A stretch of 64,000 nucleotides of DNA from Candidatus Uhrbacteria bacterium (GTDB taxonomy: Bacteria; Patescibacteriota; Patescibacteriia; UBA9934; GWF2-40-263), in assembly GCA_016219925.1 (NCBI GenBank), contig JACRJU010000015.1:4672-68671 (forward strand), read 5' to 3'. Below the pieces are notes generated by a model. That model saw nothing but the letters and a program-made list of their open reading frames with translations. It had not been told where the DNA came from and searched no databases. Positions 4,003 to 25,550 of this stretch are shown one piece after another; the first letter of the stretch is position 1; every line of letters begins with the position of its first letter. Both the position numbers and the translations under genes were made by a program.

Positions 4003-5358
4003 TTGTGTATGGCTCAAAAGTATGATTTTGAATTAAGGGGGACCACCTGCCAGAGTTGCGAGGTCGTCATTGAGCGCGATCTCTCTACTCTTGGTGGAGT
4101 TCAACATGTGAGTGCTTCTCACAACACAGGACGTCTAACGATTGAGACGTTTGAGGTTGCTAATGAGGAAAAATTGCTCAGACGCATCAACGAACGATTG
4201 GGTCCTCATGGGTATCAGGCATCGGAAGAATATTCCCGTCAAAAAATTCAAGCCCCATGGAATCTGTCGCGCATTGGCGGCGCTTTGGTTTTGATTCTTG
4301 CGGTGTATGTGATTTTTAAGTGGATGGGATTGTCGACGTTCTCGCCGCAGGCAGAGTCGGCAGGAGGATTGTTCGCGATTTTTGCCATTGGACTGGTCGC
4401 TTCGGTTTCGTCCTGTACCGCTGTTGTTATTGGTTTGCTCGCGGCGGTTTCGTCTGCAAAAGCTAAAGAACAAGCTCACGTCTCATCCAAAGATCGTTTA
4501 CGCCCACATTTTTTATTTAACATCGGCCGCATCGTTGGGTTTGCCGTTTTTGGCGCGCTGATTGGTCTAATCGGTTCGGCCTTTCAACTTTCAACGACGC
4601 TCAACGGTCTTTTCGTCATTGTCATCGCGCTGGTGATGATGAGTCTCGGATTGCATCTGCTTGATGTGGTGCCTTCCCATTTTGCTCGGCTCGCGCCACC
4701 AAAGTGGCTGTCGCATCGCATCCACGCCTTGCAAGATAGTAAGCATCCGGCCGTGCCGTTTGTGTTGGGAGCACTCACGTTTTTTCTTCCATGCGGATTC
4801 ACCCAGTCCATGCAGTTGTATGCACTTTCGCTCGGTAATCCCCTGCAGGCCGCTTTGGTGATGGCCGTATTTGCGCTTGGAACCGCGCCTGCGCTTTTAA
4901 GCGTTGGAATCTTAACTTCTGTTGCGAAAGGCAAAACCCTTCAACGAGTGATGCGCGTTGCCGGTGCCGTTGTGGTGGTGCTTGGTCTGACGAACATGCA
5001 AAACGGTGCGGCTTTGTTTGGAATGAATTTTTCGCCGAAGCATACATCCGCGGCGTCTCCTTCCGCAACGCTCTTGCAAGGAGGGCAGCAATATATCCAA
5101 ATGGAAGTGACATCGCGATCCACCTACGAACCTGATACGCTTGAGGTCATCGAGGGGGTGCCGGTTGAATGGCAGGTGTATGGGTCCAAATCTATGGGAT
5201 GCGCCAGCACGCTTGTTCAAAGGGATTTCGGCGTGCAAACGCGCCTACAGCCCGGCATTAACACCATTCGCTTCACCCCAAACAAAGTTGGAAACTTTTT
5301 ATTCAGCTGTTCGATGGGAATGGTGCGCGGAACGCTGATCGTTAAGCCGCGGGGATAA
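4003..5358 (+). CDS. Heavy-metal-associated (HMA) domain fused to a DsbD/CcdA-like transmembrane core and a C-terminal cupredoxin-like domain
   Basis: The N-terminus has a TCQSC metal-binding CxxC in an HMA-like fold. A polytopic membrane core carries paired Cys motifs (SSCTAV and FLPCGF) like the DsbD_2/CcdA family. The C-terminal ~90 aa form a beta-rich domain with a CSMGM motif. Confidence 0.55.
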   Translation: MCMAQKYDFELRGTTCQSCEVVIERDLSTLGGVQHVSASHNTGRLTIETFEVANEEKLLRRINERLGPHGYQASEEYSRQKIQAPWNLSRIGGALVLILAVYVIFKWMGLSTFSPQAESAGGLFAIFAIGLVASVSSCTAVVIGLLAAVSSAKAKEQAHVSSKDRLRPHFLFNIGRIVGFAVFGALIGLIGSAFQLSTTLNGLFVIVIALVMMSLGLHLLDVVPSHFARLAPPKWLSHRIHALQDSKHPAVPFVLGALTFFLPCGFTQSMQLYALSLGNPLQAALVMAVFALGTAPALLSVGILTSVAKGKTLQRVMRVAGAVVVVLGLTNMQNGAALFGMNFSPKHTSAASPSATLLQGGQQYIQMEVTSRSTYEPDTLEVIEGVPVEWQVYGSKSMGCASTLVQRDFGVQTRLQPGINTIRFTPNKVGNFLFSCSMGMVRGTLIVKPRG

Positions 5359-19386: not shown

Positions 19387-20447
19387 AGATTTTGTTGGCC
19401 GGAGGAGGAACACTCGGCCCCGTCACCCCCCTGCTTGCTCTCGTTGAAGCCTGGCGCGCACGCGACCCGCAAGCGCAATTTGTGTTTGCCGGAACTCCAA
19501 CCGGGCCTGAACGTTCGATTGTTGAACGTCAGTATCACGTTGCGTTTCGGCCAATTCCGGCTGTGCGATTTGAACGGTTTTTCAGTTTGGAGTGGTTCGC
19601 TTTGCCGGTGTTTGTCCTTATCGCTCTGATCGCCGCTTTCAAAATGATCATTCAGGAAAAACCTGATGTGATTGTGGGGGCAGGAGGATATACCCAAGTC
19701 CCGATGATCATGGTTGGGTGGATTCTGCACGTACCTTCGTTTGTATTTCAGACGGATGTACGCCCCTTATTATCTACACGTCTCGCCGCGCCATTTGTGC
19801 ATCGCATTTATCTTGGATGGTCGCAGACAACATCGTTTTGGTTACACAAAAAAATGGAAGTCCTAGGTGTCCCCGTCCGTGCGTCTTTGCAGACAGGCTC
19901 ACGCGAGCGCGCCATAAAACGATTTGGTTTGGATGCCAGCAAGAAAACTCTGTTGGTGATTGGTGGCGGAACCGGTTCGCTCTGGTTCAATGAACAGTTG
20001 GTTCAGATCGTTCCTCAGCTTGCGCAAGCGTTTAATGTGATTCATTTGACGGGGCGCGGAAAAACGCCGCGCTCGCTTGAGCACCCACCGGGAGGATATT
20101 TCTGTGCGGAAATTTTAGATGAGGGGATGGAAGATGCCTATGCGGCGGCAGATCTCGTTCTGGCGCGCGCGGGGATGGGAACGATTAGTGAACTGTCGGC
20201 TCTTGGCAAATGCGCAATCCTGATTCCATTGCCTCATTCTGCCCAGCGCGAGAATGCTCAAGCGATGGAACAAGGAAGAGCCGCGCGTGTGCTTGATCAA
20301 GATCAGACAGATGCGTCAATGCTTCTTGATGAAATACGTTCACTGATGGAAGACCCGCAAAAACGGGAGGTGTATCAACAGCGCATAAGAGTTGTGTTGC
20401 GCACGGATGTCACAGACACTGTCATCAATCACATTTTGCAAAAATAA
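19383..20447 (+). CDS. murG: UDP-GlcNAc:undecaprenyl-PP-MurNAc-pentapeptide GlcNAc transferase
   Basis: The N-terminal G-loop (ILLAGGGTLGPVTP) and a GT28 C-terminal domain match MurG. It is translationally coupled to ftsW. Confidence 0.85.
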   Translation: MKILLAGGGTLGPVTPLLALVEAWRARDPQAQFVFAGTPTGPERSIVERQYHVAFRPIPAVRFERFFSLEWFALPVFVLIALIAAFKMIIQEKPDVIVGAGGYTQVPMIMVGWILHVPSFVFQTDVRPLLSTRLAAPFVHRIYLGWSQTTSFWLHKKMEVLGVPVRASLQTGSRERAIKRFGLDASKKTLLVIGGGTGSLWFNEQLVQIVPQLAQAFNVIHLTGRGKTPRSLEHPPGGYFCAEILDEGMEDAYAAADLVLARAGMGTISELSALGKCAILIPLPHSAQRENAQAMEQGRAARVLDQDQTDASMLLDEIRSLMEDPQKREVYQQRIRVVLRTDVTDTVINHILQK

Positions 20448-20483
20448 AGAGACACCTCATCGGGTGTCCCTTCATTTTGACGA

Positions 20484-20657
20484 TTAAGCGGCTGCTTCGT
20501 CGCCACCTTCCTCCGGGGCGTTTTCGCCCTCGGTTGGCGCTGCTGGTTCAGCAGCTGGCTGTGATTCCATAGAACCACCCGCACAGTCTGGGCACTTCTG
20601 CTCGGCATCGAGTTCTGCAGGTGCGCCGCACGCTGTGCAAACTCCGGATCCTTCCAT
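20484..20657 (-). CDS. Small zinc-ribbon protein with acidic Pro/Ala/Glu-rich tail
   Basis: The motif CTACGAP...CPDCAG provides four Cys. The start is either MEGSG or the upstream MLIHIN. Confidence 0.35.
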   Translation of the reverse strand: MEGSGVCTACGAPAELDAEQKCPDCAGGSMESQPAAEPAAPTEGENAPEEGGDEAAA

Positions 20658-20777
20658 AAGAGTATGGTTTATGTGAATTAGCATTGGAAGTTTACGTGTC
20701 TGGTTTTATTCTGTCAAACCTCATATTCCACTCTTTCATTTGAACAGAAATACCGTCCTAAAAACTAGGACGGTATT

Positions 20778-20853
20778 TGGTGCGCCGGGAGGGGGTCGAA
20801 CCCTCGACCACGAGCTTAAAAGGCTCTTGCTCTACCACTGAGCTACCGGCGCA
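20778..20853 (-). tRNA. tRNA-Lys (anticodon TTT), CCA encoded
   Basis: The reverse complement folds as a cloverleaf: acceptor GCGCCGG, D-arm GCTCAGTGGTAGAGC, anticodon loop CTTTTAA, T-arm GAGGGTTCGACCCCCTC, then CCA. Confidence 0.85.
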
Positions 20854-20887
20854 ATAAAATAAGCGACAAAAATGTATCACTCTTATA

Positions 20888-21016
20888 GAGTTTTGGCAAG
20901 ATGAATTGGGATAAAAAAATCCAGGCAGAAGGGCCTGGGGAAGAGGTGTGCCGTGTTAGGACGACTTGTCCAGGACGAGCGGGAGGCCGAGCTTGCGCAC
21001 GAGCGCGACGAGCTCA
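20888..21016 (-). repeat. 129-bp direct repeat, copy 1 (3' end of paralog gene plus its terminator)
   Basis: It is identical to 21826-21954. On the minus strand it includes the terminator hairpin CCAGGCCCTTCTGCCTGG plus TTTTTTT, and the last ~20 codons of the gene (…AELVALVRKLGLPLVLDKSS). Confidence 0.85.
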
Positions 21017-21708
21017 GCGAGCTTCGCCTCGTGAAGCGTGTTCGGACGTGTGTTGGGTGGTGGCGGCTGGGTGAACGCGTGGTCCCCGACTTTATACGTG
21101 ACCACGTTATTGCGTTCGTGACTCCAGTACGTATTCCATCTTCTGAGCGAGCACAGGGCTTCGATCGTTGTGGAGTCGATCGTCTGCCCGTCAAAGTGGA
21201 AGGCTACGTTGAACGTCAGGAGTTGATCGTTCTGGTGAAAGATGAACGTTGCGTAACCAGGAATGTCGCTGAGAGTGCCATCTATGGAGTACTGCCAGCC
21301 ATAGTTTCCAGATGGGACGAACCCGAACCACTCTGTGTCGCTATGTGCCAAGGGTTCGGGTACTGTTGGGACATCCCGCAGAAGGCCTTCGTAGAACCAT
21401 CGGAGCACGTTTGGTCCTGCAAGGGTGGAAGGGCAGGCGCGCTTGAACTCTTGCAGGAGAGTATGATCGTTCGGATGCATGATGGAGTCCACACTTCCGA
21501 CGATACCGGTTCCCGTGTCCAGCAGGTCCTCGCACTCCTGCAGAAGTTGCGCGAAGAGGTCGCGCGTCAGTCGAGCCTCTGGCGGAATGATCGTATTGTG
21601 TAGCCTCTGCAAGCGCGCTACCGAACGCGCACCAAGCACGAGAATGAGGTATGGCATCCACATACCATGTTCCGCGAGTCGGTCTCGTAGTGTCGACTGA
21701 TAGTTCAT
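20956..21708 (-). CDS. Hypothetical protein, GC-rich, tandem paralog A
   Basis: It is a 250-aa ORF with no recognised domain. It is homologous to the downstream-adjacent paralog B; for example, ILVLGARSVARLQRLHNTIIP aligns with ILMLGARSATHFQHLHDKVIP. Confidence 0.55.
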   Translation of the reverse strand: MNYQSTLRDRLAEHGMWMPYLILVLGARSVARLQRLHNTIIPPEARLTRDLFAQLLQECEDLLDTGTGIVGSVDSIMHPNDHTLLQEFKRACPSTLAGPNVLRWFYEGLLRDVPTVPEPLAHSDTEWFGFVPSGNYGWQYSIDGTLSDIPGYATFIFHQNDQLLTFNVAFHFDGQTIDSTTIEALCSLRRWNTYWSHERNNVVTYKVGDHAFTQPPPPNTRPNTLHEAKLAELVALVRKLGLPLVLDKSS

Positions 21709-21825
21709 TTCACACCTATTGCCTTGTGTTGCCTTCTGCGATTTCCTTTCTTCTGTTTTTGCGATTTCAAGACCAAGTTGAAATTAGTACGATTGTAATA
21801 AACTGTCAACAACCTCACATTCCAC

Positions 21826-21954
21826 GAGTTTTGGCAAGATGAATTGGGATAAAAAAATCCAGGCAGAAGGGCCTGGGGAAGAGGTGTGCCGTGTTAGGAC
21901 GACTTGTCCAGGACGAGCGGGAGGCCGAGCTTGCGCACGAGCGCGACGAGCTCA
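21826..21954 (-). repeat. 129-bp direct repeat, copy 2
   Basis: Identical to 20888-21016. Confidence 0.85.
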
Positions 21955-22714
21955 TTGAGCTTCGCTTGGTCGATCTCGCACTTGTCGGGCAGGTTGGTTT
22001 CCGGAAGCGTGAAGCTGTCATCGGGGAAGATGTAGAAGATCTCGTACCTCTCTCCGTGAACGCTGTAGGAGCAATCCCAGGGGGAGGAAGTTCGAGAAGC
22101 GCTGAAGTCGTCAGGTGCTCAAGCTGTGAGGCCTTGAGGTGCACATGGACGATCAGCATCCGTTCCGTCTTGGTGGCGATGTAGCCTTTGGGGAGTACGA
22201 CTCCTTCGGGCAGATCCGTCTTGCTGTTGTGAAGACGGAAGGTGAAGGTCACAGGGCAGGAGACCTCGCCCAGTATGCACTTGATCCACGTTCCCAGACC
22301 GTCTTCGTCGGACACGAGGATGTCGCGGTTCCAGAGGTCTCCGTCTGGGATGGGCGTCTGCTTGCTGTGTTCGCTCAGGAGGGTTTGGTAGTACCTCTGA
22401 AGCGTTGCCGGTTTTTGGGAATTTCCTCTGCGAGCGCGGTTGAACTCCCGCAGGAGCATCTCGTCGCTGGGACGCGCGAAGCGGCTCGAGCGTTTGGCGT
22501 CGCCTTCTCCCGTCTCCAGCATCCGTTCGCGTTCCTGCTTGAGCGCGATGAAGAGGTTACGAGGAAGCCGACACTCCAGAGGGATCACCTTGTCGTGTAG
22601 ATGCTGGAAGTGCGTTGCGGAACGCGCTCCCAGCATGAGAATGACGAAGGCCGTCCGCAGCCCGTACCTGTCCAGCAGGTCGAGCGTTGGAAACTCACTG
22701 TTCATGGGTATCAC
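21894..22714 (-). CDS. Hypothetical protein, tandem paralog B; apparent frameshift near a C5/G5 homopolymer at ~22088-22096
   Basis: The N-terminal ~205 aa are in one frame. The conserved C-terminus (…KLNELVALVRKLGLPLVLDKSS, stop at 21894-21896) is in another frame. The longest single ORF (21815-22714) instead reads through into a Ser/Arg-rich out-of-frame tail. Confidence 0.45.
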
Positions 22715-22949
22715 CGTGTTGGTCTTTGAACTTTTCCTAAACCGCCAAGCGGCTGCATGCGGGTGACCATTTCCGCACGCAAGGATTCTGCTCGTCCTAT
22801 GGACGCTTTCACTGCAGAGTGTCCATCGGGTCGCGTCAAAGACGTTTGCTCACCATGAGCTGACCCGTTTTTCCGTCCTATGGACGGCTTCCTTTGTGAT
22901 GGAAGGAAGAAGTATAAGTTAGCTCACCTGTGATAAACTGTCAACATCT

Positions 22950-25550
22950 ATGATTCCTTTCGCCTCGTGGCATACCGAGCCCTTTTCCGCTGTTCTTAAA
23001 GCATTTGAAACGACCACGCAGGGATTAGCCGATGCAGAAGTTCTTGCTCGACAAAAAAGTTTTGGTTTGAATGAACTCCCCAAAGAGAAATCGGTTTTCT
23101 GGTGGGTTATTTTTGGTCGTCAGTTTTTGAGTCCGCTCATGCTGATTCTGATCGTCGCTTCAATCCTTTCTGGATTGTTAGGAGATCCGATTGATGCCGC
23201 GGTTATTTTTGCCGCTGTCGTGCTTAATACCGTCATTGGCTTTGTTCAGGAATTCAAAGCAGACCGCGCTCTGACTCGGCTCCAATCGCTTGTGAAGCCT
23301 GTGGCTCTCGTGCGACGCGCAGGTCGTACTGTGAAAGTGAAGGCACGTGATTTGGTCCCCGGAGATATTTTGCTTTTACATCTAGGCGATCAGGTGAGCG
23401 CGGATGCGCGCTTGATCGAGTCTGTTGAACTTCAAGTCAACGAAGCGCCTCTGACTGGCGAATCTTTGCCCGTCCTTAAACACGTCGAGCCGCTTGGAAA
23501 AACGGTTGCGCTTGCCGAGCGCGCTGATATGGTTTTTGCGGGTACCAGCATTGTCGGCGGACACGGACAAGCCGTCGTGGTTGCAACGGGGTTGCAAACG
23601 CAGATCGGCAACATTGCCAACCTTATTGCCACCACCGATGAGACACAGACGCCGCTTCAACAACAGCTCGTTCATCTCGCGCATTGGATTTCTTTTCTTG
23701 TTGTTGGTTTGGTCGCGATTTTATTTGTGTTGGGCGTTGTCGTTGGTCGCGATACCTTGCAGATGTTTGAAGTCGCCGTCGCTCTTGCGGTCGCGGCGAT
23801 TCCCGAAGGTCTCGCGGTTTCGGTGACCATTATTTTAGCGATCGGGATGCAGCGGATTTTGAAGCGCCGAGCCCTCGTTCGCAAAATGATCGGAGCCGAA
23901 ACGCTTGGGAGTGTTTCGGTGATTTGTTTTGATAAAACCGGGACGCTCACGCAGGGAGAAATGCGTGTGACATTCGTCCTCTTGCCCGATCAAACTGTTG
24001 ACGCCGCGCGCGTCCATGAAAAATCAGATGGACCTATCAGAGAACTGCTTGAAGATTTGGTCCTTTGTAATGATGCCCAGCGGGCAGACGGACAAGACGG
24101 GAAGGAGATTTCGGGAAGCCCAACTGAGCGCGCGCTCTTGGCATTTGTCATGGAATCCGGGGTTGATGTGCAAAAGGCGCGCGACCATGCTCCCCGCGTG
24201 AGCGAAATTTCTTTTGACTCTTCGCGCAAGTTTCATCTCACTCAACATCAATACGGCGATGCGTTCCGAACGGTCATGACCGGCGCTCCAGCAAAAATTT
24301 TAGCGGCGTGCGATTTATCCGAACATAAGCGCGTTTCCATTGAGAAGCAGATTGAGGATTTTGCAAAAAAAGGTTTGCGATTGGTGGCGGTAGCTCGAAG
24401 AACGGATATCAAACCGTTCGAACATTCTTCTACAAAAGATTTGGAAGGATTCGATTATCTAGGTTTGGTGGTTCTCCAAGATCCTTTGCGCCTGAACATC
24501 CAGGAAGAGATCGCTGTGGCGCTCCGCGCGGGGATCCGTCCCGTCATGATCACAGGCGATCATCCAGAGACAGCGCGCTGGATTGCCCAGCAAGCCGGCA
24601 TCGAAGCGACGAGCACCTCTGTTCTCACGGGTTCGCAACTAGATGAGTGGGATGATGAGCGGCTCGCAAAGCATATTACGGAAATTGCCGTTTTTGCCCG
24701 CGTCGAACCGCGGCATAAAATGCGTATCGTTCAAGCTTGGCAAAAACACGGAGAGGTGGTGGCGATGACCGGTGACGGTGTGAACGATGCACCGGCGCTT
24801 AAAGCGGCGGATATCGGGATTGCGATGGGGTCGGGGACCGAAGTGGCCAAGCAGGCGAGCGATCTCGTTCTTTTGGACAACAATTTTGCCACGATCACTT
24901 CGGCTGTGGCGGAAGGCCGCGCGATGTTCGATAACATTCGAAAATCCTCCGCCTATCTTTTGGCGGATAGCTTTACCGAAATCATTTTAATCGCCGGGTC
25001 CTTGTTACTCGGACTTCCGACGCCGCTTCTTCCCATTCAAATTCTTTGGATCAATTTAATTTCTGACAGTCTGCCCAATATCGGTCTCACTCTTGAACCG
25101 GCTGAAAAAGATGTGATGACCCAACCACCTCGTCAGCGCACGGAAGCCGTTTTGAACAAAGAAGTAACCGTGATGATTTTCACCATCGGCATCGTGACGG
25201 ATCTCATTTTGTTCATCCTCTATTTTTTACTCCTGCGGTCACTTGGCTCCATTACGGAAGTGCGCACGATTCTGTTTATGGCGGTCGGGATTGATTCGTT
25301 GTTTTACATCTTCGCCCTGCGCAGTTTTCGCCGGACAATTTTTTCTCTCAACCCGTTTTCCAACCTCTGGCTTGTCGGCGGCGTGCTGATCGGTTTTGCC
25401 CTGATGCTCTTGCCTCTCGTTCATCCAGTTCTACGCGACGTGTTTAGCCTCTCCGTCCTGCGCTTGTCCGATTGGCTGGTCTTGCTTATGATGGGGCTGG
25501 TTAAGTTGATCATGATTGAAGCCGTTAAAGAACGCTATTTCTCCGTATGA
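22950..25550 (+). CDS. P-type ATPase, type IIA-like cation transporter (Ca2+/Mg2+-ATPase family)
   Basis: It has DKTGTLT, a PEGL motif in TM4 (IPEGLAVSV), TGDHPETA, GDGVNDAPALK, and ten TM-like segments. Confidence 0.85.
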   Translation: MIPFASWHTEPFSAVLKAFETTTQGLADAEVLARQKSFGLNELPKEKSVFWWVIFGRQFLSPLMLILIVASILSGLLGDPIDAAVIFAAVVLNTVIGFVQEFKADRALTRLQSLVKPVALVRRAGRTVKVKARDLVPGDILLLHLGDQVSADARLIESVELQVNEAPLTGESLPVLKHVEPLGKTVALAERADMVFAGTSIVGGHGQAVVVATGLQTQIGNIANLIATTDETQTPLQQQLVHLAHWISFLVVGLVAILFVLGVVVGRDTLQMFEVAVALAVAAIPEGLAVSVTIILAIGMQRILKRRALVRKMIGAETLGSVSVICFDKTGTLTQGEMRVTFVLLPDQTVDAARVHEKSDGPIRELLEDLVLCNDAQRADGQDGKEISGSPTERALLAFVMESGVDVQKARDHAPRVSEISFDSSRKFHLTQHQYGDAFRTVMTGAPAKILAACDLSEHKRVSIEKQIEDFAKKGLRLVAVARRTDIKPFEHSSTKDLEGFDYLGLVVLQDPLRLNIQEEIAVALRAGIRPVMITGDHPETARWIAQQAGIEATSTSVLTGSQLDEWDDERLAKHITEIAVFARVEPRHKMRIVQAWQKHGEVVAMTGDGVNDAPALKAADIGIAMGSGTEVAKQASDLVLLDNNFATITSAVAEGRAMFDNIRKSSAYLLADSFTEIILIAGSLLLGLPTPLLPIQILWINLISDSLPNIGLTLEPAEKDVMTQPPRQRTEAVLNKEVTVMIFTIGIVTDLILFILYFLLLRSLGSITEVRTILFMAVGIDSLFYIFALRSFRRTIFSLNPFSNLWLVGGVLIGFALMLLPLVHPVLRDVFSLSVLRLSDWLVLLMMGLVKLIMIEAVKERYFSV

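Follow-up and report, generated by a model that had tools for sequence, protein, structure and literature searches.

A structured leader RNA absent from Rfam and coupled to a rare protein family at a Candidatus Uhrbacteria locus

Orphan riboswitch candidates, of which the Breaker/Weinberg-type motifs in Rfam are examples, lie directly upstream of one gene class in the 5′ untranslated region (UTR), and they are multi-stemmed RNAs in which covariation is abundant, junction nucleotides are conserved and pseudoknots occur. In the SAM-II, SAM-V and preQ1-II/III riboswitches the Shine-Dalgarno region is sequestered in a pseudoknot, and autoregulatory leaders such as the operators of ribosomal proteins, phage coat proteins and RegA are carried on the mRNA of the protein that binds them. 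Each of these bears comparison with an RNA encoded in a stretch of 64,000 nucleotides from a Candidatus Uhrbacteria bacterium (contig JACRJU010000015.1, positions 4,672 to 68,671 of the forward strand; the whole stretch is referred to below as the window, and its own numbering is used). On the minus strand of the window are two tandem homologous genes, A (20956-21708) and B (21894-22705), and the approximately 205 nucleotides between the predicted transcription start of B and its start codon (22706-22909, minus strand) constitute a structured 5′ leader RNA. An earlier note on the locus dealt with the gene pair and passed over the 240-nucleotide region upstream of B, and no other feature of the locus is as informative. 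The leader represents a strongly supported class of structured RNA that is undescribed, and the fold of the protein to which it is tied is likewise undescribed; literature searches found no description of either the RNA or the protein family.

With the orphan riboswitch candidates the leader shares its position and each of the architectural features just named, but it matches no Rfam 15 family, the gene family that follows it is itself uncharacterized and four of its hairpin loops evolve in concert. What it has in common with SAM-II, SAM-V and preQ1-II/III, going by general knowledge of these RNAs, is that loop-to-tail pairing brings its 3′ tail, ribosome-binding site included, into the fold; the leader differs in being four to five times their size and in combining two three-way junctions with two separate pseudoknots, and it shows no sequence or model similarity to them. 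As in autoregulatory leaders generally, the RNA is on the mRNA of its putative binder, and two near-identical hairpins, H2 and H7, resemble repeated operator sites, but the leader is far more elaborate than such operators and the protein has no known RNA-binding domain. A type III toxin-antitoxin system of the ToxIN kind also has a non-coding RNA just upstream of a small protein gene and under one promoter with it. It was rejected as a model because the leader has no tandem direct repeats, no terminator separates the RNA from the gene, and there is no ToxN/AbiQ-like match in PADLOC. The layout of omega-RNA and IscB would be comparable if the leader served as part of a ribonucleoprotein (RNP), a reading taken up below.

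The interval upstream of B aligns at the nucleotide level with the upstream regions of the related loci L009 and L010 and with those of far more divergent family members that are rich in guanine and cytosine (GC). Nearly every family member is preceded by the leader: there are 14 distinct instances, each extending from a TTGACA promoter to the start codon, and the leader is retained across hosts of 51-70% GC. The carriers are B itself, the genes for P0002, P0003 and P0005, both tandem genes of L013, and the genes for P0010, P0011, P0012, P0013, P0014, P0017, P0021 and P0022. Only A and the second gene of L017 are without it, and each of these is the downstream copy of a tandem pair. A covariance model, R1, built from eight sequences with the structure that RNAalifold itself proposed, recovers held-out leaders (E values of 4e-34 for L013, 2.5e-22 for the second L013 copy, 1e-31 for L016 and 8e-08 for L001-L006), and every match is full length and ends at the start of a family open reading frame (ORF). 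Within the window R1 has a single match, 22703-22909 on the minus strand at 208.7 bits, and nhmmer likewise finds one copy there. When R1 was run on about 75 loci from GTDB genomes that carry the pattern by chance, there was no match. With cmscan against the 4227 families of Rfam 15 at E <= 1, positions 20400-23100 of the window gave only a tRNA and the leaders of ten other loci gave nothing.

From 5′ to 3′ the leader comprises helices H1 and H2, a three-way junction of H3, H4 and H5, a long-range helix GAAC/GUUC and a 3′ tail, with the long-range helix enclosing H6 and H7, which have a conserved bulge AGUGAAA, and a second three-way junction formed by H8, H9 and H10. RNAalifold applied to a plain, unsupervised MAFFT alignment yields 37 pairs, 26 of them with compensatory changes. 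A hand alignment of 14 sequences, A11, accommodates 11 helices and two pseudoknots; 96.5% of its 939 cells are paired, and compensatory changes are seen in 48 of 79 pairs. Its covariation score is 0.407 versus 0.166 in column shuffles, none of 500 of which reach it, and in slid controls, where the partner was moved by 1-3 columns, the score is 0.05-0.09 with 31-47% paired. Folding of the single sequence to its minimum free energy gives most of the helices (z-score -3.08). To the extent that a riboswitch is a conserved structured aptamer in a 5′ UTR, the 14 instances, the covarying 48 of 79 pairs and the recovery by R1 place the leader among such RNAs.

Both pseudoknots involve the 3′ tail and put the Shine-Dalgarno region inside the leader fold. 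In the first, PK1, the H9 loop UGGUC (about 22762-22758) pairs with GACCA (22724-22720) in the tail just 5′ of the ribosome-binding site; its arms are invariant except in the second L013 module, where a loop GGAUC pairs with a tail GAUCC, a compensatory insertion. In the second, PK2, the H1 loop (A/G)UCAC, AUCAC in the window, pairs with GUGA(U/C), which is GUGAU (22714-22710) in the window, and the tail arm overlaps an unusually conserved Shine-Dalgarno sequence, GGUGA (22715-22711). PK2 has the compensatory variants UCGU pairing with GCGA in L001 and GUCAC pairing with GUGAC in L016. The start called for the first gene of L013 (469) is inside the leader; the ATG at 491, which overlaps PK2, is probably the true one.

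The arrangement suggests how the unit may work. Promoter, leader, coding sequence and terminator would make up one unit, with the leader of about 205 nucleotides included in the mRNA and ending at the start codon. Pairing of the H9 loop UGGUC with GACCA just 5′ of the ribosome-binding site, and of the AUCAC loop with the GGUGAU ribosome-binding site itself, would hide that site in the folded leader and so block translation. The leader would then be a riboswitch-like translational control element whose effector may be the encoded protein, acting in feedback, or a small molecule. The simplest reading is that the folded leader would control translation by occluding the ribosome-binding site, since a terminator scan found no terminator within the leader and the RNA reaches directly to the start codon. 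Leader-peptide attenuation was considered and set aside, as a mini-ORF in the leader beginning ATG GTG AGC is not conserved, L009 having no ATG there.

What the effector may be is bound up with the behavior of the hairpin loops. H2 (22873-22887) and H7 (22795-22809) are nearly identical within each leader, in the window CCGUCCAUAGGACGG and GCGUCCAUAGGACGA. More generally the loops of H2, H5, H7 and H10 resemble one another within one RNA and change together between lineages: in that order they are AUA, UUU, AUA and UUG in the leader of B, ACC, UCC, ACC and ACA in the leader of P0009 in L013, UGU, UGU, UGU and GCGA in the second L013 module, AGC, AGC, GUC and UGC in L020, and ACGA, ACGC, ACGC and ACGA in L001. 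The loop of H4 is constant (UGG). In a permutation test the concerted pairs have p values of <0.001 to 0.02, and pairs with H4 have values of 0.4-0.8. The two tandem modules of L013 thus carry different loop ‘themes’, ACC in one and UGU in the other. Because the four loops co-vary in the manner of repeated sites for one co-evolving partner, a protein partner is favored, and we lean slightly toward the encoded protein as the effector, rank a small-molecule riboswitch next and place a dedicated RNP after both.

For the locus as a whole, the probable reading is that B is the ancestral unit with a riboswitch-like translational leader, that B itself is now broken, and that A is an old, leaderless paralog whose 3′ end has been converted. 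Several points weigh against this, or against parts of it. A11 was fitted to the structure, so that its numbers lean toward it, and its 14 sequences are few and related; the unsupervised RNAalifold result and the held-out test of R1 guard against that bias. Apart from one sequence PK1 is invariant and so rests on conservation, and PK2 is absent in L017. No alternative ‘ON’ conformation of the leader was identified. The test of loop concert ignores phylogeny and draws on only about six independent lineages. Binding of RNA by the encoded protein is putative, its sequence having no known RNA-binding domain. In addition, complex multi-junction RNAs with conserved unpaired purines, such as the AGUGAAA here, are more typical of metabolite riboswitches or RNP scaffolds than of simple autoregulatory operators.

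That last point bears on two other readings of the leader. It may be a metabolite- or ion-sensing riboswitch, with the family being an enzyme or binding protein tied to the ligand, and several points accord with this: the location in a 5′ UTR, the strong covariation, the conservation across hosts of such different base composition, and an architecture in which two multi-helix junctions and invariant unpaired nucleotides are combined with capture of the Shine-Dalgarno region by pseudoknots, as is generally known for SAM-II, SAM-V and preQ1-II. However, the leader is linked to a single gene family, there are no metabolic neighbors and no ligand clue from gene context, and a concerted change of four terminal loops would be unexpected for a ligand pocket, so that a riboswitch of this sort is regarded as possible but doubtful. 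An unlikely reading is that the RNA and the novel-fold protein form a dedicated RNP, the RNA being released from the 5′ UTR or acting within it. RNA and protein strictly co-occur even in the most divergent family members, the leader is large and complex for an operator, and the differing themes of the two L013 modules look as if each protein had its own RNA. Were this so, the two would be a new RNA-dependent system in which a protein would be paired with its cognate RNA through the lineage-specific loops, placement in the 5′ UTR would serve only co-expression, and the tandem modules (B and A here, and the pairs of L013 and L017) would be diversified, mutually insulated copies of that system; as an elaboration of the RNP reading it is equally unlikely. 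Against an RNP, the leader stops at the start codon with the ribosome-binding site inside it, it has no variable guide-like segment (only a few nucleotides separate H1 from the predicted transcription start), A and the second gene of L017 are paralogs without a leader, and no nuclease or other catalytic domain was matched in the family. Translational control by the folded leader remains the preferred reading.

The proteins that accompany the leader form a very rare, uncharacterized family of about 270 amino acids without detectable relatives in sequence or fold. An exhaustive search with a hidden Markov model (HMM) of 1.84 billion cluster representatives gave 21 representatives, of 222-286 amino acids apart from one 194-residue fragment and one outlier of 1251 residues. 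Eleven of the family clusters were looked up; each has only one or two members, and that of A alone carries a name. A word-indexed search of 5.8 billion clusters returned A itself as the only match. That A and B have no recognizable domain, as the earlier note had it, was upheld by searches of Pfam, NCBIfam and PADLOC, which gave no match, and of PHROGs, which gave no meaningful one; a Pfam scan of all 22 family members found nothing, and the family profile matched no PDB sequence at E <= 10. The conserved part is the N-terminal approximately 110 residues (YPTLDLL..GLR.AY.ILMLGARS..FQ.LHD..IP..CRLPR...ALK.E ... PSD..LL.EFNRAR), and it is followed by a variable middle and a C-terminal helix ending ...G(I/L). 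An early AlphaFold model with only two sequences was uninformative (predicted local distance difference test, pLDDT, of 48). For B with its reading frame repaired, AlphaFold2 with an alignment of 22 sequences gave a confident model with a pLDDT of 92.3 and a predicted template modeling (TM) score of 0.85, in which a six-helix N-terminal domain, conserved in the family, is followed by a variable, beta-rich C-terminal domain. Foldseek comparison of this model with PDB and BFVD found no structural neighbor at E <= 1e-3, all TM-scores being below 0.4, and the insignificant matches, such as tail-tube, SSB and AChBP, were beta-rich only.

Repair is needed since the conserved C-terminus of B is read in another frame than its N-terminal 200-odd residues. 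The coding sequence runs from an ATG at 22705-22703 to a TAA at 21896-21894, and the frame changes at a C5 run on the coding strand (22080-22084; CTT CCT CCC CCT GGG), the sole run of at least five C or G in 21801-22750. The earlier note had correctly put the change at a homopolymer but about eight nucleotides away, at about 22088-22096. Adding one C to the run gives a product of 270 amino acids with ...LELPPPWDCSYS..., and removing two gives one of 269 with ...LELPPWD..., as in the orthologues, which read LELP(P/E)W at this position. Repaired B aligns end to end with the intact proteins P0002 and P0003 (276-277 amino acids) at 49-52% identity, and as these are in one frame over their full length, B is frameshifted relative to its family. 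Downstream of the shift the frame of B is preserved with no further stops and no decay, and the leader upstream is intact; for this reason the lesion is either very recent or an artefact of assembly or consensus.

To judge from the sequence, B is probably a recent pseudogene that arose by real mutation. An error of assembly or consensus, or a minority variant, with B being intact and functional in the real organism, is a somewhat less probable account. In its favor, the shift is exactly in a homopolymer, the undecayed downstream frame is joined by a pLDDT of 94 over the junction in the repaired model, and the leader RNA is wholly intact; further, against a genuine lesion, an indel error in a C5 run would be uncommon yet possible if the assembly is Illumina-based, as we assume. 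Five C, however, is short for systematic error, and a very recent real mutation would look identical. Exact look-up among 15 billion proteins found neither the shifted ORF nor repaired B in any other assembly, so that no independent assembly corroborates an intact B. The earlier note had also allowed for a slippery site. A -1 slip of tRNA-Pro on C CCC CCU, from CCU to CCC, would, as the sequence reads, give exactly repaired B, but programmed frameshifting is very improbable: the orthologues have CCT CCA TGG (L009) and CCA GAG TGG (L010) at this position, in a single frame and without a slippery run, and no element that might stimulate frameshifting in B was seen, though none was sought. Since P0002, P0003 and all other full-length members pass the position in one frame, a programmed frameshift gene was rejected. 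So was a phase-variable contingency locus, the run being only C5 and the orthologues having no such run at this position. For annotation purposes B is a disrupted gene, not intergenic space.

The relationship between A and B that the earlier note proposed is firm: once B is repaired the two proteins have 33% amino acid identity (E = 2e-35). Equally so is the exact direct repeat of 129 base pairs that they share at their 3′ ends (20888-21016 = 21826-21954), which was found independently and then checked base by base. It can be extended to 145 nucleotides at 97% identity, and a 37-nucleotide core of it occurs twice in the window versus an expected zero by chance. Read on the minus strand, each copy takes in the final 20 codons (...ELVALVRKLGLPLVLDKSS) with their stop codon, then an intrinsic terminator and about 33 nucleotides more, the terminator being CCAGGC-ccttct-GCCTGG and then a T run in both; the stem is at 20921-20938 in the copy that ends A and at 21859-21876 in the copy that ends B. 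Downstream of the stem each copy also contains TTGCCA, at 20899-20894 and at 21832-21837. The first of these is the -35 element of a promoter-like site, TTGCCA-17-TACATT (20871-20899), for the tRNA-Lys gene downstream of A, so that half of a tRNA promoter has been duplicated in front of the promoter of A.

The earlier note took the repeat to mean recent duplication or gene conversion. A recent event it does appear to be, but one of gene conversion: because identity over the whole genes is only 33% and the 129-base-pair 3′ end alone is identical, it is the last 60 coding bases and the terminator of A that seem to have been recently replaced by those of B, and not the gene that was recently duplicated. 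The C-terminus and terminator that A and B have in common resemble those of B orthologues (AKLGELIALVRSLGIPLEL in P0002, and the terminator CCCCAGGCCCC..GCCTGGG in L009 and L010), and as it is B that matches its orthologues in L009 and L010 in this way, the 129 base pairs would have been copied from B to A. Tandem family pairs elsewhere (L013:283-1326 with 1393-2454; L017:76-1050 with 1212-2006) have no identical 3′ ends, the L017 pair being 72% identical and the L013 pair having no common 3′ end, which argues that the conversion here was recent and local. Both copies in L013 have the leader, and in L017 only the first has it, as in the window.

In other respects A has diverged. It encodes 250 amino acids, has lost about 21 residues of the beta-rich domain, and has A, T, K and C in place of the family-conserved C45, P48, N88 and R91. 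NCBI has it as MBI5370335.1 (locus tag HZA85_04065), a hypothetical protein of Candidatus Uhrbacteria with 233 amino acids that is started at Met17. In the region 21658-21708 the family alignment puts the first helix (residues 6-13) upstream of this annotated start. The start is more likely the ATG at 21708, behind AGGTG and 17 codons upstream of the deposited one, which gives the 250 residues. The closest relatives of A are B-type proteins, and the comparison points to an old duplication within the lineage, which would have given rise to A as a divergent, leaderless paralog that has a promoter copy of its own. B is taken to be the ancestral, syntenic copy, since in all three of the window, L009 and L010 the divergent neighbor of the P-type cation ATPase, at its N-terminal end, is a B-type gene.

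The promoter-like site TTGACA-N17-TAANTT that the earlier note described for each copy is indeed there, within a motif TGTTGACAGTTTAT that has exactly two occurrences in the window (21798-21811 and 22933-22946) versus 0.32 expected. Each gives TTGACA-N17-TAA(T/C)TT, and the -10 boxes are weak and under the threshold of the scanning tool. For B the site is at 22916-22944 on the minus strand and is a consensus match, with TTGACA at 22944-22939, a 17-nucleotide spacer and TAACTT at 22921-22916, and for A it is at 21781-21809 with TTGACA at 21809-21804, the same spacing and TAATTT at 21786-21781. The TGTTGACAGTTTAT motif is also upstream of the orthologues in L009, L010 and L012. The leader of A, in comparison, is about 70 nucleotides, purine-rich and without the RNA motif.

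The ATPase gene (22950-25550, plus strand; Pfam E1-E2_ATPase, and Cation_ATPase_N from residue 7) has its ATG at 22950, three nucleotides away from the TGTTGACAGTTTAT motif that holds the -35 box of B. In 22916-22952 the plus strand of the TGTTGACAGTTTAT region reads TGATAAACT, which amounts to an extended -10-like box about 18 nucleotides before the ATPase ATG. By this arrangement, which L009 and L010 share, the divergent promoters would overlap and the ATPase mRNA would be nearly leaderless. ATPase N-termini are readable upstream of the family genes of both. The ATPase neighbor to which the earlier note drew attention is thus a feature of close relatives. It does not hold across the family, whose other members are in unrelated housekeeping settings, between groEL and prfA, beside rlmI and pyrG, or after radical-SAM and deaminase genes, and a functional tie to the ATPase was discounted as the synteny is confined to the window, L009 and L010.

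Beyond A on the same strand is a gene for tRNA-Lys(UUU) (20778-20852). A perfect 13-base-pair hairpin adjoins its 3′ end (20748-20778; CCGTCCTA...TAGGACGG) and has the same arms as H2 of the leader, a likeness that is probably coincidence as the equivalent hairpin in L009 is unrelated in sequence. Further downstream on the minus strand is an ORF of 66 amino acids (20484-20684) with two CxxC pairs and an acidic, Ala/Pro-rich tail, which has no Pfam match and is behind a near-consensus promoter, TTGACA-17-TAAACT (20717-20689). Together the small ORF, tRNA-Lys, A and B make up a minus-strand island (20484-22946) between murG and the ATPase gene; in positions 1-50000 of the window nearly all long ORFs are on the plus strand.

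A and B have GC contents of 56.8% and about 59%, respectively, against 51.4% for the window, so that the earlier description of them as strongly GC-rich was right as to an excess and overstated as to its size, which is moderate. The excess is mainly at third codon positions, where GC (GC3) is 68-75% in A and B versus 43-60% in neighboring genes. As to distribution, the RNA pattern gave 119 matches in GTDB representative genomes, of which only one, L041, was genuine after HMM filtering. It is at 4772-4977 of CAYRYG010000032.1, a contig of a metagenome-assembled genome labelled uncultured Gammaproteobacteria, and is identical to the L007/L008 locus; if the binning of that contig is right, the family and its leader are not confined to Patescibacteria. 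The remaining family loci are on short metagenomic contigs. A protein search of the contigs of GTDB representative genomes found no family match, a collection of metagenome contigs searched by RNA pattern and by protein yielded nothing, and no family member was found among viral contigs. The patchy occurrence in hosts of 51-70% GC, the differing neighborhoods and the raised GC3 in the window are in keeping with a self-contained module, made up of promoter, leader, gene and terminator, that is occasionally transferred horizontally.

Some of the same features could be taken to mean that the A/B pair arrived recently as a mobile or defence island that was inserted beside tRNA-Lys: GC3 is raised, the block is on the minus strand within a plus-strand region and adjoins a tRNA gene, and the family is scattered over hosts of very different base composition and neighborhoods, with one contig labelled as gammaproteobacterial. 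This is nevertheless improbable, as the genes are on the 5′ side of the tRNA gene and no repeat of the tRNA 3′ end was found, neither A nor B has a PADLOC or PHROG hit, the family is absent from the viral contigs searched, and the position is stable in three related contigs. An integrative island targeted to the tRNA was in particular rejected on account of the placement of the genes and the lack of an att-like repeat; no search was aimed at an integrase.

The history of the paralog pair, comprising an old duplication, a recent conversion of 129 base pairs and a frameshift in a homopolymer, is ordinary genome dynamics. What is new is a large and well-supported structured RNA that is absent from Rfam and strictly coupled to a protein family without detectable relatives. 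New complex leader RNAs of around 205 nucleotides are uncommon, and each has historically pointed to an unrecognized ligand, regulatory protein or RNP. This one comes with a ready model, in the form of its helices, two pseudoknots and a covariance model, and with the testable prediction that the folded leader would occlude the ribosome-binding site. The concerted change of four hairpin loops is an unusual signature, and it could reveal co-evolution of the RNA with its partner.

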